A DNA stretch of 28,040 bases from a virus (Duplodnaviria > Caudoviricetes), in the IMG/VR virus record IMGVR_UViG_3300016476_001549, positions 1 to 28,040 of that record. One strand, written 5' to 3'. Positions 583 through 16,889 of the stretch are shown one piece after another (position 1 is the stretch's first letter; every line of letters begins with the position of its first letter). A program made the position numbers and the translations under genes. The notes under the pieces are model-generated. The model saw only the letters and a list, made by a program, of their open reading frames with translations. It did no database searches and was not told where the DNA came from.

Positions 583-613
583 AAAAAAACCCAAACATTA
601 CTGCTTGGGTTTT
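583..613 (-). terminator. Intrinsic terminator (attenuator 1) directly upstream of tRNA-Leu
   Basis: Minus strand AAACCCAAGCA-GTAA-TGTTTGGGTTTTTTT. Confidence 0.85.
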
Positions 614-637
614 AAAACAAAATTATGACAATAATTA

Positions 638-739
638 TTAACCCAAACTCAATCGAAAATCTAACAATAGAGATTCAGCACCACAAGATAATCCTGTCGA
701 ACATAAACCATAAACCATATTATTAACTTTCATTTTCAT
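638..739 (-). CDS. Putative leader peptide 1, 33 aa, Leu/Ser/Gly/Cys-rich
   Basis: MKMKVNNMVYGLCSTGLSCGAESLLLDFRLSLG*. It has 7 Leu (6 UUA/UUG), and its 3' end GTTTGGGTT is complementary to the terminator 5' arm. Confidence 0.75.
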   Translation of the reverse strand: MKMKVNNMVYGLCSTGLSCGAESLLLDFRLSLG

Positions 740-778: not shown

Positions 779-795
779 TTTTTTTATTTAATTAG

Positions 796-871
796 TAGAG
801 AAGGTGGGATTTGAACCCACGTGAACCAACTACCCTTTCTACACCTTATAAGAGTGAGGGGATACTTCTCC
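796..871 (-). tRNA. Atypical tRNA-Ile(UAU)-like RNA lacking a normal D-arm
   Basis: Acceptor GGAGAAG/CTTCTCT-A and T-arm GTGGG TTCAAAT CCCAC are canonical. Loop CT TAT AA sits on CACT/GGTG. It neighbours tRNA-Ile(GAU). Confidence 0.6.
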
Positions 872-982
872 ATGTGTATGTCTATTTCACCTTCCATTTT
901 ATTTATTTTAATTCTTTCATAGGCGTAATATGCTTTGCGGTAATTACACTCTGTCCAAAAACGTTCGCAACCTACTTATTTG

Positions 983-1057
983 TAGTCATACCCAGGCTCG
1001 AACTGGGGGCCTCTGACGTATCAGATCAGTGCTCTAAACCAACTGAGCTATATGACT
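983..1057 (-). tRNA. trnI: tRNA-Ile(GAU)
   Basis: Acceptor AGTCATA/TATGACT; anticodon arm CTGAT-CT GAT AC-GTCAG; canonical D and T arms. Confidence 0.95.
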
Positions 1058-1063
1058 ATTTTT

Positions 1064-1136
1064 GTAGTGATGGCGGAATGCGCTTTCGTGCCTAACTCAT
1101 CAGACTGGTGACTAAACCAATCATTCACATCACTAT
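1064..1136 (-). ncRNA. Hammerhead-like structured RNA (core present, cleavage triplet non-canonical)
   Basis: Closing helix TAGTGATG/CATCACTA; hairpin ATTGGT/ACCAGT; then CTGATGA-GT TAGGC AC-GAAA. Confidence 0.45.
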
Positions 1137-1141
1137 ATTTG

Positions 1142-1213
1142 TGAGCATAGGGAATTTCGAAATCCCGATCCTCTATTTAAGAGACAACTGCTCTTTCTCT
1201 AAGCTACAAACGC
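1142..1213 (-). pseudogene. Degenerate or chimeric tRNA-Lys(CUU)
   Basis: D and T arms and loop CT CTT AA are recognisable. Acceptor (GCGTTTG/TATGCTC) and anticodon (GTTGT/ATAGA) stems are mispaired. Confidence 0.7.
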
Positions 1214-1215
1214 AT

Positions 1216-1860
1216 TTAATTTTTAATTTCTTTTATTAATCTATTACATCTTTTATAATTACCACCTTTTGGGGTTAACCCTATATCTATTAAAGCTTGA
1301 CGTATATTAAAATTATGTTCTATAATTTTATAAACTAACTCTTCATCTGTTACTTTATTCTTTTTTTTACTTTTATTTCTACCTCTCCATGTTTCAGTTA
1401 TACTATGACAGTTAGGGCATAAACACTCTAAATTTTCTCTTGAATTGTTTAAATTATTTCCGTCTTTATGTTCTAACTCTAGTGATATTTTTTTACCTAA
1501 CCAAGAATCAATTCCACATTCTAAATTATTACACCTACCATTTTGTTCTAAAATAATTCTTTTTCTTAATCTTTCAAAGCTTAAATTTTTATATTCTTCA
1601 TTTAAAATCTTTTCATTAGCTTCTTTATTTTTTTTTAAAGCATTATTCTTCCATTTTTTTATTAAATCACTATCATCTTTCAATCTTAAGCTTAAATTAA
1701 TTCCAGCTTCTTTAACTTTATTAGATAATTTAGCTGATATCCTTTTTTTTTCTTTATCAACTTCATCCCAATCTCTACTATTTCTACAAGACAAAGAACA
1801 AAAATTAATCAAACCTTTAGACGGAATAAAATCTAATTCACATTTTTTACACTTTTTCAT
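1216..1860 (-). CDS. HNH homing endonuclease with N-terminal Cys/zinc motif, free-standing in the tRNA array
   Basis: HNH motif LELEHKDGNNLNNSRENLECLCPNCHS. Start placed at MKKCKKC (1860) because the longer ORF overlaps a tRNA. Confidence 0.9.
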   Translation of the reverse strand: MKKCKKCELDFIPSKGLINFCSLSCRNSRDWDEVDKEKKRISAKLSNKVKEAGINLSLRLKDDSDLIKKWKNNALKKNKEANEKILNEEYKNLSFERLRKRIILEQNGRCNNLECGIDSWLGKKISLELEHKDGNNLNNSRENLECLCPNCHSITETWRGRNKSKKKNKVTDEELVYKIIEHNFNIRQALIDIGLTPKGGNYKRCNRLIKEIKN

Positions 1861-1917
1861 ATTCGAACCTATTTTAATTTTAAATATATAAAAAAAGTTA
1901 AAATATTTCAAATTTTG

Positions 1918-2006
1918 TGTATCCAGCAGGATTCGAACCTGCGACGGAGTCATTAACTCTCCTCATTAAAAGTGAGGTGCTGTCGGCCAACTAAGCGAAT
2001 GGATAC
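1918..2006 (-). tRNA. trnK: tRNA-Lys(UUU) with an atypical long variable arm
   Basis: Acceptor GTATCCA/TGGATAC-A; CCTCA-CT TTT AA-TGAGG; variable hairpin GAGT TAATG ACTC; T-arm GCAGG TTCGAAT CCTGC. Confidence 0.85.
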
Positions 2007-2016
2007 ATTTAAATTG

Positions 2017-2088
2017 TAGGCCCAGCGGGAGTCGAACCCGATTCCATAGATTAAAAGTCTATTGCATCACCGCCAATGCTTTGAGCCC
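2017..2088 (-). tRNA. trnK: tRNA-Lys(UUU)
   Basis: Acceptor GGGCTCA/TGGGCCT; ATAGA-CT TTT AA-TCTAT; T-loop TTCGACT; A at position 8. Confidence 0.9.
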
Positions 2089-2220
2089 ATATTTAGTCAT
2101 TAAGGCTCGCAACTATGCGTCTATGCAAACCTCTTAACGTTTCTTATATTTCATTTTCTTTTTCATTTTATTCATTTTTATTAACATAGACAAATTACCT
2201 GTCTATGTGTCTATGTTTAG

Positions 2221-2293
2221 AGCTGAAGATGGGGTTCGAACCCACAACCTACTGATTACAAATCAGTTGCACAACCAGTCGTGCTCCATCAGC
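2221..2293 (-). tRNA. trnT: tRNA-Thr(UGU)
   Basis: ACTGA-TT TGT AA-TCAGT; acceptor GCTGATG/CTTCAGC; discriminator U. Confidence 0.92.
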
Positions 2294-2303
2294 ATTTTAT
2301 TTG

Positions 2304-2376
2304 AGCCATAAGTCTGAATCGAACAGACGACCTCTTCCTTACCACGGAAGCGCTCTACCAACTGAGCTATAACGGC
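2304..2376 (-). tRNA. trnT: tRNA-Thr(GGU)
   Basis: CTTCC-GT GGT AA-GGAAG; D-arm GCTC AGTTGGTA GAGC; discriminator U. Confidence 0.92.
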
Positions 2377-2382
2377 ATTTTG

Positions 2383-2457
2383 GGTGTATAATCGGGATTG
2401 AACCGATGACCTCTAGAACCACAATCTAGCACTCTAACCAACTGAGCTATATACACC
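2383..2457 (-). tRNA. trnH: tRNA-His(GUG)
   Basis: CTAGA-TT GTG GT-TCTAG; encoded G-1 and C73. Confidence 0.95.
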
Positions 2458-2463
2458 ATATAA

Positions 2464-2613
2464 ATTGTCTAAATTGGAAACCTTACAAGCAAAAACGTGC
2501 TCTACCAACTGAGCTATACGCTTTTCACTAGGATACACGCAGCAGGACTCGAACCTGCGACCACGGCTTTAACAGAGCTAGAAGTAGCGTTGCAAATAGC
2601 CAATTTAGACAAT
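2464..2613 (-). ncRNA. YrlA-like bacterial Y RNA (permuted tRNA-like domain)
   Basis: 14-bp terminal helix ATTGTCTAAATTGG/CCAATTTAGACAAT. Inside, a T-arm (GCAGG TTCGAGT CCTGC) precedes a loop-closed acceptor-like stem and then a D-arm (GCTC AGTTGGTA GAGC). Confidence 0.8.
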
Positions 2614-2645
2614 AATTTAATTCAAAGAACGTTTTCTTTTTCTTG

Positions 2646-2720
2646 CTGAGATGGAGGGACTCGAACCCACTCTCCTCGGCTTAACAGGCCGTAGCTATAT
2701 ACCACTTAAGCTTCATCTCA
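2646..2720 (-). tRNA. trnN: tRNA-Asn(GUU)
   Basis: Acceptor TGAGATG/CATCTCA-G; CGGC-CT GTT AA-GCCG. Confidence 0.88.
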
Positions 2721-2727
2721 ATTTTTG

Positions 2728-2799
2728 CTCTCCAGGGGAATTTCGAAATCCCGACATTTCGATTAACAGTCGAATGCTCTGCCTCTGAGCTACTGGAGA
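2728..2799 (-). tRNA. trnN: tRNA-Asn(GUU)
   Basis: Acceptor TCTCCAG/CTGGAGA-G; TTCGA-CT GTT AA-TCGAA. Confidence 0.93.
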
Positions 2800-2858
2800 A
2801 TATATTTCAATCTTTTCCTTTCGGAAGGCTTTGGACGTTTCCACAAACCTTTGAGCAT

Positions 2859-2887
2859 AAAAAAAGCCCGACATTTTTGTCGAGCTT
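2859..2887 (-). terminator. Intrinsic terminator (attenuator 2) upstream of tRNA array 1
   Basis: Minus strand AAGCTCGACA-AAAA-TGTCGGGCTTTTTTT. Confidence 0.85.
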
Positions 2888-2913
2888 CTGTATATCTTTT
2901 TGTATTTTCTAAA

Positions 2914-3018
2914 TTAAACTAATTCATCTATACCGTTTATACATAGCCCGACCATTCGAATGTGCTTTTTATTGCAAATCGTATTATTAATCGTTATATG
3001 TAAATTTAAACCGTACAT
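2914..3018 (-). CDS. Putative leader peptide 2, 34 aa, Asn/His/Thr/Lys/Ile-rich
   Basis: MYGLNLHITINNTICNKKHIRMVGLCINGIDELV*. It contains the antiterminator GTCGGGCTATGTATA. Confidence 0.8.
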   Translation of the reverse strand: MYGLNLHITINNTICNKKHIRMVGLCINGIDELV

Positions 3019-3029
3019 TTTGTTTTATC

Positions 3030-3101
3030 TTAAATAGTTAAAAAAATTGTTTTTCTTTTATTTATACGTACAAAAGTATAAAAAGTTACATAAAAAACAA
3101 A
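3030..3101 (-). promoter_or_regulatory. Composite promoter cassette for tRNA array 1
   Basis: TTTG-N19-TACTTTTG (host type) overlaps TGTAAC-N16-CGTAT (ECF-like), followed by TATTTAA. A near-identical copy lies at 16818-16889. Confidence 0.75.
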
Positions 3102-3146
3102 ACTTTTTTTTAAAAAAATGAAAATTATTTTTTAAAATGCTGATAA

Positions 3147-3560
3147 TTAAATAGTTATATTTTTAATTTTTATTATACCTAAATATTTTTTTCTCTCCTT
3201 ATTCAGCATATAAGGAGTTAGATCAAGAGTTTTTATAAATTCTGAAGATTCAATTTTATCATTATATATGCAAATATCTTCTAAATGCATGTTTTTATCA
3301 AACTCAATCTGATATCTTCCGCCGAGTGTGTTATCATCACTATTATAATATTCATTTTTTAAGAAAATATTTTTGTGTTTAGGATTTACCATTATTTTAT
3401 TAGATCCCCCACGTAATGTTTTCTTGTGTATAGATGCAGATACTTGATTTATTTTTGTCATTATACCACAATCAACTAAACCAGGTAGCTCGCTCACTCT
3501 AACCCACTCTTTATAATCCCACTCAACAATGGTGTTGCACTCTTCTTCTGTGAAAATCAT
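3147..3560 (-). CDS. Hypothetical protein
   Basis: 137-aa ORF with a 4-nt ATGA overlap with the upstream gene. Confidence 0.75.
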   Translation of the reverse strand: MIFTEEECNTIVEWDYKEWVRVSELPGLVDCGIMTKINQVSASIHKKTLRGGSNKIMVNPKHKNIFLKNEYYNSDDNTLGGRYQIEFDKNMHLEDICIYNDKIESSEFIKTLDLTPYMLNKERKKYLGIIKIKNITI

Positions 3561-4282
3561 TTCTTAAGCTTTACATTACAAGCTTTTTCAAGCATTTCAT
3601 ATTGTTTAATAACATCACTCCATCTATCTTTATACATTTTTTTGCCCCAATCTGTGTTAAATGTAGCTGACTCAAGAAATTTCCTTTGAGGTTGTATAAA
3701 ATCCAAGAAGTCCATTTTAAGCTCACTAGATAACCCTGCTATATTTTGTTGAATCCAATTGTATTCATAAACCTGCATTAAATCAGCATCTCTAATTATA
3801 CTCTGTCTTAAATCCAAATCTTTACTTTCTATTACATATGGATATTGTGTAGCGTCTAATAACTTATTCACATAATCTAAATCAACATCAATTTCTTCTT
3901 GTTTGGTAAATTTTTTAATTGCGTTTTTAGAGTTTTGAACATTTACATCATCTTTTTCTTTTCCAATTGTATGATTTACATCGTGAAATATAGCTGAAAT
4001 TAATAATTCTTTTAATTCTTTCTCATTTTTAATACCTTCTGATACTGCACCTAAATAAGAATATTTAAGAACAGTCAATAAGTGATTTAAATTATGATAA
4101 GGGCCGTTATTTGAACTATTATTAAGTATTATATGCTTAAATGCTTTTTGCAAATATTCGTATTTATCTATTATTTCAATAGCTTCCAATGGTTTGCCCT
4201 TCTTTTTTTTGATAGTTGATGCCTCGGCGAGATTAGAGCGTAGTGTTCCTGCCAAAATATTCATCCTTTCTGCTTTATCCAT
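3557..4282 (-). CDS. HD-domain metal-dependent phosphohydrolase (PDEase-like)
   Basis: Motifs PYHNLNH, FHDVNH and IIRDADL. Confidence 0.85.
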   Translation of the reverse strand: MDKAERMNILAGTLRSNLAEASTIKKKKGKPLEAIEIIDKYEYLQKAFKHIILNNSSNNGPYHNLNHLLTVLKYSYLGAVSEGIKNEKELKELLISAIFHDVNHTIGKEKDDVNVQNSKNAIKKFTKQEEIDVDLDYVNKLLDATQYPYVIESKDLDLRQSIIRDADLMQVYEYNWIQQNIAGLSSELKMDFLDFIQPQRKFLESATFNTDWGKKMYKDRWSDVIKQYEMLEKACNVKLKK

Positions 4283-4333
4283 AAAAAATTTTTAAATAAA
4301 CATAAAGAAAAAATATTTTATTTCAAACACTTT

Positions 4334-15174: not shown

Positions 15175-16050
15175 TTAAAGTTTTTTTAAATTATTTATTA
15201 TATCTATTATATATTTAACATCACCATACCTTATATCTACCTTTTTTTTAATATACTCCATCTTGCTTTTATCTAATTTCATACAATATGGGTTTTTTGG
15301 GTCTAAAAACAAATTGTAATCATTTAAATAAAAATCTGGATAATATTGTCTTTCTTTATTTTTTTTATCAATCCAAGTTAAACTTTCAGGTCTTATCCAT
15401 CTTATTGATTTAGAGTCTAATAATTCAGCAACTTTCAGTTCCCATGTTGACTCAAGAACAACTATGCTATTAATATATTTATTAAAATAATATATAGTCT
15501 TCCTTGATCCGTTGTTATAACTTCTATTTAAAGAACTTTTTGTTGCACATTCTTTAGAGCACGTTTTTCTGCTCCAACTAGGAAATTTATCAGTAAAAAA
15601 TTCTTTGTTACAATATTTACAATTATATTTGTAGTGTTTATTTATGTAATCATAATTACTCGACTTTATTAAACCAAAATTAGCATTATAACACTTTCCC
15701 GTCTTACTTCTGCTTGCAACCAATTCTCCATTTTTATACTTATTACTTAACGTTAAACCTATTTTCGTCTTTGTTTCATCTGACATTACCCTATTTTTAT
15801 TATTAAATTTTGCTGCACAAGATGAATTACAAAACTTTTTATTTAAGTTTATTGTATTTTTACAATTTTTACACTCATTATATTTTTTTATATTACCACC
15901 AAACTCTTTACTAAAGTCAATATCATATTTGTCACATAATGTTATTACTTTTTTAAAACCATTTCCATTCTTATGATAGCCTAATATGTTTAATATTTCT
16001 GTTTTTGTTTTTGCGTTTTTTATAATATTTAATAACTCTTCTCTACCCAT
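15175..16050 (-). CDS. Free-standing homing-type endonuclease with zinc fingers and a PD-(D/E)XK (TnsA-N-like) domain
   Basis: CKNC..FCNSSC and CKYC..TCSKEC; C-terminal ESTWE...YYPDFYL...LDPK; inserted between tRNAs. Confidence 0.8.
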   Translation of the reverse strand: MGREELLNIIKNAKTKTEILNILGYHKNGNGFKKVITLCDKYDIDFSKEFGGNIKKYNECKNCKNTINLNKKFCNSSCAAKFNNKNRVMSDETKTKIGLTLSNKYKNGELVASRSKTGKCYNANFGLIKSSNYDYINKHYKYNCKYCNKEFFTDKFPSWSRKTCSKECATKSSLNRSYNNGSRKTIYYFNKYINSIVVLESTWELKVAELLDSKSIRWIRPESLTWIDKKNKERQYYPDFYLNDYNLFLDPKNPYCMKLDKSKMEYIKKKVDIRYGDVKYIIDIINNLKKL

Positions 16051-16285: not shown

Positions 16286-16599
16286 TGACATACTCCACCT
16301 TCTCACGAGGTAGGAATCGAACCTACATCCCAGGACTCCAAAACGCAAATGCTATTCCTGTGCTTTCCCATTAAGCTACTCCCAATGTGTTTCATATGCC
16401 TTACTCAATCAATTACTCCCCCTTTCTACTTCTACATCCATACTAATTTCCTCCCCCTACTGAACCTGTCTAGACCCTTCCTCTAGTTCTCGGTTTTTAA
16501 AGCTTTTGCGTTCGTTATTCAGTAGTACTCAGAAACTTTCAAAATGCAGTTTCGTTAGAGCGCTTTCGTCAATCTTTCAACTTCATCACCAATATGTCA
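16286..16599 (-). ncRNA. ~315-nt structured RNA with an embedded tRNA-like domain, unknown family
   Basis: Closing helix 16591-16599/16286-16294; internal helix 16518-16525/16457-16464; D-arm, 20-nt-loop arm and T-arm at 16303-16385. Confidence 0.65.
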
Positions 16600-16615: not shown

Positions 16616-16646
16616 AAAAAAGCTCGAATCTTTCGAAACGAGCTTT
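16616..16646 (-). terminator. Intrinsic terminator (attenuator 3) upstream of tRNA array 2
   Basis: Minus strand AAAGCTCGTTTC-GAAA-GATTCGAGCTTTTTT. Confidence 0.85.
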
Positions 16647-16676
16647 GTTATATCTTTTTTATTTAATTCTAATCTA

Positions 16677-16805
16677 CTATAAGACTTCATTAAAGTATAA
16701 CATACTCGCTTCTCCCAAGCTATAATAGGCAGGAGCATACGCATTCCCTAAGCCGTTCATCGGCATAGCGGGCATAATTGCTGTATATGTTAATACTTTT
16801 TTCAT
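16677..16805 (-). CDS. Putative leader peptide 3, 42 aa, Ala/Pro/Met/Gly/Tyr-rich
   Basis: MKKVLTYTAIMPAMPMNGLGNAYAPAYYSLGEASMLYFNEVL*. It contains the antiterminator GCGAGTATGTTATA. Confidence 0.8.
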   Translation of the reverse strand: MKKVLTYTAIMPAMPMNGLGNAYAPAYYSLGEASMLYFNEVL

Positions 16806-16817
16806 TTTCTTTTTATC

Positions 16818-16889
16818 TTAAATAGTTGTAAAATTTTGTTTTCTATATTTTATACGTACAAAAGTATAAAAAGTTACATAAAAAACAAA
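16818..16889 (-). promoter_or_regulatory. Composite promoter cassette for tRNA array 2 (repeat of 3030-3101)
   Basis: Same TTTG/TACTTTTG, TGTAAC-N16-CGTAT and TATTTAA elements. Confidence 0.75.

Follow-up and report, generated by a model that had tools for sequence, protein, structure and literature searches.

The virus record IMGVR_UViG_3300016476_001549 of IMG/VR, analyzed here over its whole 28,040 bases and referred to as the window, contains on its minus strand a short leader that lies ahead of ten phage transfer RNA (tRNA) genes and, judging from its sequence, probably controls them by ribosome-mediated (trp-type) transcription attenuation. The features of an attenuator that can be recognized in a sequence are all present: a short open reading frame (ORF), codons cognate to the tRNAs encoded downstream, an intrinsic terminator, an antiterminator that excludes it, and a 1:2 hairpin. 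The ORF, its codon match and the three alternative helices recur, with unit-specific content, across a family of related leaders found in the window and in other contigs.

The order and spacing of the elements in this unit (Table 1) are those of an attenuator: a promoter, a 5' untranslated region (UTR) of 47 nucleotides (nt) between a predicted transcription start near 3066 and the leader ATG, the ORF, the terminator, and the tRNA genes. Both elements of a Bacteroidota sigma-A promoter, a TAnnTTTG box and an upstream TTTG, can be recognized, and their separation fits what we take to be the spacing rule for this sigma factor, TTTG about 19 nt upstream of the -7 box. The leader ORF is short and lies within the 5' leader, its stop codon 115 nt from tRNA-Asn. 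A prior reading made from the sequence alone (the sequence-only reading) had noted that residues 5 to 20 are 14 of 16 Asn, His, Thr, Lys, or Ile, and this is borne out on the ORF at 3018-2914, where the two nonmatching residues are Leu and Cys; AAA and AAG, ATA and ATT, and CAT and CAC are all in use, as it had also stated. The intrinsic terminator (2889-2859) consists of a 12-pair stem (2889-2862) and seven T residues and lies 60 nt before array 1. Between positions 400 and 3400, the minus strand has just two terminator-like sites, this one and another at 613-586, and both are leader terminators.

Array 1 begins with tRNA-Asn at 2799. With default settings, ARAGORN and Rfam call Asn, Asn, His, Thr, Thr, Lys, Lys, and Ile(gat), followed by Leu. 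The order given by the sequence-only reading, Asn, Asn, His, Thr, Thr, three Lys, and two Ile, is reproduced once two genes are added: Ile(tat) at 796-871, called by Rfam and by ARAGORN at a low threshold, and a third Lys (ctt) at about 1141-1213, called by low-threshold ARAGORN only. The array is interrupted by an HNH endonuclease ORF (1953-1216, minus strand; phrog_14736, E = 1.4e-26). Leader-peptide attenuation is textbook biology for amino-acid operons, and the genes downstream of this leader, ten tRNAs and one HNH ORF, fall outside the classical biosynthetic scope. That the targets are tRNAs rather than biosynthetic enzymes is the new point; the mechanism is unaffected by it.

Table 1. 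Positions of the array-1 leader unit, its RNA helices, and the sibling units in the window
Feature	Position	Strand	Remarks
Predicted -33 element, TTTG	3098..3101	-	Read from sequence; 19 nt upstream of the -7 box
Predicted -7 box, TAnnTTTG type	3071..3078	-	Inside a 29-nt element found three times in the window
Leader ORF	2914..3018	-	34 codons plus stop; ATG at 3018, stop at 2916-2914
Regulatory stretch, codons 5-20	2959..3006	-	14/16 Asn/His/Thr/Lys/Ile
Segment 1	2988..3017	-	5' half of the 1:2 hairpin (anti-antiterminator); from minimum free energy folds; overlaps codons 1-10
Segment 2	2929..2954	-	Partner of segment 1 or, via 2952-2938, of segment 3
Segment 3	2878..2894	-	Antiterminator right arm (2894-2879) and terminator 5' arm (2889-2878)
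Segment 4	2859..2873	-	Terminator 3' arm (2873-2862) running into 7 T (2865-2859)
Helix 1:2	3017-2988 with 2954-2929		-19.5 kcal/mol; z = -2.96; 0/200 shuffles as good
Helix 2:3, antiterminator	2952-2938 with 2894-2879		14 pairs; -20.7 kcal/mol; z = -5.92; 0/200 shuffles as good
Helix 3:4, terminator	2889-2878 with 2873-2862		About -15.8 kcal/mol
tRNA array 1	795..2799	-	Asn, Asn, His, Thr(ggt), Thr(tgt), Lys, Lys, [HNH ORF], Lys(ctt), Ile(gat), Ile(tat)
Sibling unit before array 2	16616..16877	-	Shared promoter, leader, antiterminator, terminator
Sibling unit before tRNA-Leu(taa)	583..739	-	Different promoter; leader and terminator (613-586)

The leader RNA folds at -37.3 kcal/mol overall (z = -4.32 versus shuffled sequences), and its helices 1:2, 2:3, and 3:4 are mutually exclusive and of similar energy. 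This is the four-segment logic of the trp leader. The sequence-only reading had placed the antiterminator arms at exactly the positions that we find and had said that this pairing excludes the terminator; indeed, the antiterminator helix occupies the terminator 5' arm. We then folded the nascent RNA with the ribosome footprint masked. Stalling with codon 9, 13, or 17 in the A site leaves the antiterminator free, a ribosome with its A site at codon 21 abolishes it, and the full transcript without a stall folds into 1:2 plus the terminator. Every one of 12 units treated in this way switches as the attenuator model needs, a stall in the regulatory codons yielding the antiterminator and the absence of a ribosome, or a ribosome at the stop codon, yielding 1:2 plus the terminator (11 of the 12 were usable in one run; U4_L060 was refolded together with U7).

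Taken alone, the codon match of the array-1 leader is suggestive and not decisive. Over the whole peptide, 17 of 33 residues are cognate to the array versus an expected fraction of 0.30 in the window's 21 long ORFs (p = 0.008); comparison with random ORFs having the base composition of the strand or of the ORF itself gives p = 0.017 to 0.035 (0.027 for the ORF's own composition). The sequence-only reading had cautioned that such residues are common in AT-rich DNA, a fair caveat for the array-1 unit by itself, since its whole-peptide enrichment is modest. In the test that it had proposed, against AT-matched random ORFs, a 16-residue stretch with at least 14 cognate residues, a length picked after the fact, has a probability of 7e-5 to 1.4e-4, and one in which each of the five amino acids occurs at least twice has a probability of 7e-4. 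Among the window's 70 small ATG-initiated ORFs, the leader included, four reach its overall cognate fraction, and the leader is the one that reaches 14/16. The other two frames of the same stretch contain stops and encode 10/33 and 8/33 cognate residues versus 17/33.

Sibling units occur within the window. The 130 nt upstream of the leader ORF recur at 16936-16803 (88% identity) and at 26403-26311 (75%), and the 29-nt promoter core is present in three copies versus none expected. Array 2 is preceded by a leader of 42 codons (16805-16677, minus strand), in which Pro, Asp, Ala, Gly, or Met make up 16 of 41 residues, and tRNA-Leu(taa) is preceded by one of 33 codons with 7 Leu (739-638, minus strand). 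The promoter copy at 26353-26325 (minus strand) directly heads a protein gene (26309-25602) and is followed by neither a leader ORF nor a terminator, which we counted in favor of attenuation.

Further units were found in related contigs. A search with the neighboring AAA protein identified three IMG/VR contigs (98%, 97%, and 76% identity). The 76% relative retains the array-2 leader with 2 synonymous and 9 nonsynonymous codon changes, including Ala to Gly and Tyr to Asp, and the array that follows reads Pro, Asp, Tyr, Pro, Gly, Gly, Met. It also has a further unit, in which a 27-codon leader (11/26 Ser or Arg, all five Arg codons being AGR) is followed by a terminator, a protein ORF, tRNA-Ser(tga), and two tRNA-Arg(tct). 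The exact promoter pattern had no match in viral contigs, and looser patterns matched 4 and 7 stretches. A degenerate version matched 42 metagenome stretches, about ten of which, judged by eye, carry leader units. Four of these leaders, one of them cut, are of the Ser/Arg class. Three Val/Leu/Phe leaders stand ahead of Phe, Val, Leu, Leu, Val, Arg, Leu; a single Gln/Phe/Val/Arg leader is followed by an HNH ORF and then by Gln, Phe, Val, Val, Arg; and a Glu leader, of which there is also a cut copy, precedes Glu, Glu, Glu. The remaining stretches are protein-gene promoters, rRNA-like leaders, or unrelated Bacteroidota DNA. A scan of the 330 nt upstream of array heads missed leaders located further upstream or behind an inserted ORF; being too crude, it served as a cross-check only.

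It is because the sibling leaders each match their own tRNAs that the array-1 match becomes strong. Codon pairing was tested on seven units from six codon classes, one per class or locus (Asn/His/Thr/Lys/Ile; Pro/Asp/Ala/Gly/Met; Ser/Arg; Phe/Val/Leu/Arg; Glu; Gln/Phe/Val/Arg; and Leu); five close orthologues among the 12 units and the Glu leader of a more distant contig, G004, were left out of the seven-unit tests. Enrichment for the unit's own array gave binomial p values of 0.008, 0.012, 2.7e-5, 9.6e-5, 0.044, 2e-4, and 0.018 by unit, and the own array had the top z-score in 7/7 rows. The true pairing of leaders with arrays was the single best of 5040 permutations (1 of 720 without the Gln/Phe/Val/Arg unit), in support of the earlier claim that the leader spells out its own array. 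With each ORF's base composition as the null, the p values were 0.027, 0.0013, 0.0042, 0.0081, 0.007, 0.0051, and 0.12 (combined, 1.1e-8), and the ATG frame beat both other frames in all seven units. An artefact of composition was rejected on the basis of this frame specificity together with the own-composition null.

The predicted switch is also specific to its unit in most cases. Terminator stems vary, and the 3' part of each ORF carries an arm complementary to the 5' arm of its own terminator. The own antiterminator pairing ranked first in both row and column for 7/8 units (the Leu unit ranked 3rd and 2nd) and was the best of 5040 permutations; of 300 shuffled arms per unit, 0, 0, 2, 8, 0, 1, 0, and 13 were as good as the observed energy. 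An in-frame ORF from ATG to stop, with class-specific amino-acid content, is kept in 12/12 units, and leader orthologues retain their composition while their sequences drift: codons 8 to 17 of the Ser/Arg orthologues change synonymously only, and two Val/Leu/Phe leaders that differ at 18 of 27 codons are both still rich in Val, Leu, and Phe.

These family-level results bear on a simpler account, in which a leaky, unregulated terminator or insulator follows a strong promoter, the ORF goes untranslated, and its codon match reflects AT-rich composition and chance. We consider this account unlikely. It would be in keeping with the modest whole-peptide enrichment of the array-1 leader (p = 0.008 to 0.035) and with the unremarkable context of its ATG, but seven leaders would not be expected to match their own arrays as they do, and the frame specificity of all seven, the unit-specific antiterminator arm inside each ORF, and the synonymous-only change in the Ser/Arg codons would be left unexplained.

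The alternative helices are strongly supported by themselves, and they would also fit a switch flipped by something other than a ribosome, such as a phage or host protein or a tRNA bound directly as in a T-box, with the ORF incidental. That reading is very unlikely, given that an ATG-to-stop frame with class-specific content is kept in the 12 units and that the regulatory codons are placed where a stalled ribosome frees segment 2. Rfam, run on the whole window at gathering score, returned 17 tRNA matches and no other family, neither a leader family nor a T-box; with tRNA matches only, a T-box or other known RNA family was rejected.

It is highly improbable that the promoter-to-terminator stretch is a stand-alone small RNA or a gene for a 34-residue protein, with the tRNAs transcribed from elsewhere: the unit does have its own promoter and terminator, and there is precedent in other bacteria for action in trans by released attenuator RNAs and by leader peptides (PMC6614838), but same-class leader peptides diverge freely and keep only their composition, unlike a folded or binding peptide, the units were found only before tRNA blocks, and no other promoter of the shared type was found between 2859 and the first tRNA at 2799.

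From the attenuator arrangement, we infer leader translation, termination, read-through, and the signal sensed. Transcription by the host RNA polymerase would begin near 3066, at the Flavobacteriaceae-type promoter, and proceed through the leader, whose 34-codon frame a ribosome would translate. If codons 5 to 18 (Asn, His, Thr, Lys, and Ile) were read fast, the ribosome would reach the stop codon, segment 2 would be held by the ribosome or by segment 1, and the 3:4 terminator would form and end transcription 60 nt before the first tRNA. If any of these codons were slow because its charged tRNA was scarce, the ribosome would sit on segment 1, 2:3 would pair, the terminator would be blocked, and polymerase would enter the array. 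The tRNAs produced would themselves decode the test codons, which would make the loop self-limiting: the block would be made on demand and shut off once supply sufficed. We tentatively extend this to a demand-driven supply throughout this phage family, in which each isotype-sorted tRNA block may have its own codon-matched leader and terminator switch, with which the phage might sense codons that cannot be decoded and replace the corresponding tRNAs. Decoding could fail through a mismatch in codon usage, host shut-off, or host anticodon nucleases.

Several observations weigh against attenuation. The whole-peptide significance of the array-1 leader by itself is weak, p ranging from 0.008 to 0.035 depending on the null. 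Its start-codon context, in a model built from 25 window genes, is equaled or exceeded by 36% of the window's 983 ATGs, while the array-2 and Leu leaders are in the top 2.8% and top 16%, respectively. No orthologue of the array-1 leader was found in viral contigs with proteins 3557-4282 and 3147-3560 and a 36-nt piece of the first tRNA-Asn as queries, and no RNA run was found among the listed sequencing runs that contain the stretch. The array-2 leader has five Tyr codons, and no tRNA-Tyr was found in array 2 of the window (16385-14402); the 76% relative (L006) carries tRNA-Tyr(gta) in its array 2. The Glu leader of contig G004 has just 3 Glu in 23 residues, and in the same contig a tRNA-Arg/Met and a tRNA-Phe locus follow protein genes with no leader. 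Finally, a ribosome on the stop codon would not itself cover 2952-2938, so the blocking of 2:3 would rest on the 1:2 hairpin re-forming or on steric hindrance.

Near-identical DNA copies from three other runs retain the array-1 leader. Of the 4 differences in one contig, covering 2803-3090, three are downstream of the terminator and the fourth is in the terminator loop; another contig, covering 2800-3075, has 1, in the 5' UTR; and a more distant one, covering 2965-3100, has 18, with 1 of the 12 listed falling in the ORF, where it is synonymous. Because sequencing depth was below 5 for the contigs over the leader region, these differences were given little weight. A joint skipping 2824-2987 in one contig was set aside as unreliable, one of its sides being just 25 letters at 80% likeness.

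Several peculiarities of the arrays and units were noted along the way. Between tRNA-Asn and tRNA-His of array 1, the stretch 2457-2644 (minus strand) contains two tRNA-like pieces in the wrong order, a T-arm with 3' end first and then an acceptor with the 5' half of a D-arm; the pieces are bracketed by a 13-nt inverted repeat, preceded by a boxA-like motif, and called a tRNA by no tool. They could be a decayed or rearranged tRNA gene. A short GTTCTTTGA-like motif follows several leader terminators (at about 16600-16585 and at 2632-2620 in the window, at 6785-6800 in L006, and in contig L027) and is also found in rRNA-like leaders among the metagenome matches; it is reminiscent of the boxA found in leaders of rRNA operons. 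The first tRNA of array 2 (16302-16385, minus strand) is called by default ARAGORN as an 84-nt tRNA-Ala(agc). When introns are allowed, the call becomes tRNA-Pro(tgg), its anticodon loop carrying a 13-nt insert, and Pro is what relatives have at this place. Several tRNAs of this family are unusually long, at 77 to 96 nt. A weaker endonuclease-like ORF (15175-16050) splits array 2, and in L027, a related contig, an HNH-like ORF stands between leader and tRNAs. In the Glu unit of L024 and L069, the promoter is followed by tRNA-Met(cat) and then by the Glu leader, terminator, and Glu tRNAs, so translation of this leader would take place on an RNA with a tRNA at its 5' end. After the Ser/Arg array, L018 (3845-4000), as well as L021 and L048, has another copy of the promoter and, behind it, some 130 nt of conserved sequence with ends that pair; Rfam at gathering score assigned no family to this stretch, which may be a new small RNA.

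The window is a whole IMG/VR record estimated to be 8% complete and is therefore a fragment of a very large phage. Its G+C content is about 30%. Most of its proteins have no Pfam family; those matched include an AAA ATPase, an ABC transporter pair, an ATP-dependent DNA ligase, and an OmpA-domain protein. Its tRNA genes, 16 according to ARAGORN and 17 according to Rfam, are all encoded by the minus strand and are grouped in two main arrays. The sequencing runs that contain the stretch are of DNA, mostly from freshwater metagenomes. A blastn search of a phage GenBank collection with 2300-4300 matched 208 records, all through tRNA parts only, with the leader covered by none; in tblastn with the neighboring AAA protein, the top match, at 35% identity, was a crAss-like phage, and no close cultured relative was found. 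The degenerate promoter pattern points to the likely host: among genome records its matches were 7/7 Bacteroidota and 6/7 Flavobacteriaceae, comprising four Flavobacterium, Arenibacter, an uncultured Flavobacteriaceae, and a "Bacteroidetes bacterium". Window genes have no Shine-Dalgarno-like sequence in their upstream regions. A TAnnTTTG -7 box, at -12 to -5, and clues for leader-peptide attenuation in Flavobacterium are described in PMC9723704.

Our full-text literature searches, which returned mostly listings and abstracts, yielded no account of leader-peptide attenuation of tRNA genes. If true, demand-driven supply would be the first such case, and one in which the product reads its own sensor. 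How phage tRNA genes are regulated and why large phages carry tRNAs are open questions, both of which a slow-codon sensor would make testable; it predicts block-specific induction upon depletion of a single tRNA species. Such a sensor would also tie phage tRNAs to the tRNA-cleaving defences of the host and would supply Bacteroidota, a group with few genetic tools, with compact codon-specific switches that can be programmed. The modular family, one scaffold carrying interchangeable codon sets, constitutes a natural experiment on the evolution of attenuator specificity.

Among known systems, enterobacteria possess multivalent attenuators, those of ilvGMEDA and thr, in addition to trpL, hisL, leuL, and pheL. 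The general principle of leader-peptide attenuation is outlined in PMC1183508. Like the enterobacterial attenuators, the phage unit has a short leader ORF in which regulatory codons for several amino acids are clustered, an RNA whose four segments can form 1:2, 2:3, and 3:4 helices, and a terminator just before the first structural gene. In contrast, it has no sequence or Rfam relationship to them, and it is a viral element that exists as several paralogous units with their own codon sets and separate tRNA blocks. Whereas the enterobacterial attenuators control biosynthetic enzymes, the phage unit would control tRNAs, so that its product would feed back directly on the decoding of the test codons. 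T-box riboswitches (RF00230), like the proposed phage unit, sense the supply of a given charged tRNA and choose between a terminator and an antiterminator; unlike it, they work by direct tRNA binding without any translation, and their target genes are synthetase or amino-acid genes. RF00230 has no match in the window.

The attenuation predicted in Flavobacterium psychrophilum (PMC9723704) resembles the phage unit in its host family, which is the likely one here, in the TAnnTTTG -7 box, and in starts without a Shine-Dalgarno sequence; it differs in that the operons concerned are host ones for amino-acid biosynthesis, with no tRNA genes. In Anabaena sp. PCC 7120, the tRNA L-array (trn operon) is bacterial and is switched on whole in a global stress response, unlike the phage blocks, and the abstract of the report reports neither a leader peptide nor an attenuator (PMC8421152). 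It is nevertheless the nearest functional parallel, being a supernumerary array that stays silent until impaired translation induces it (PMC8421152).
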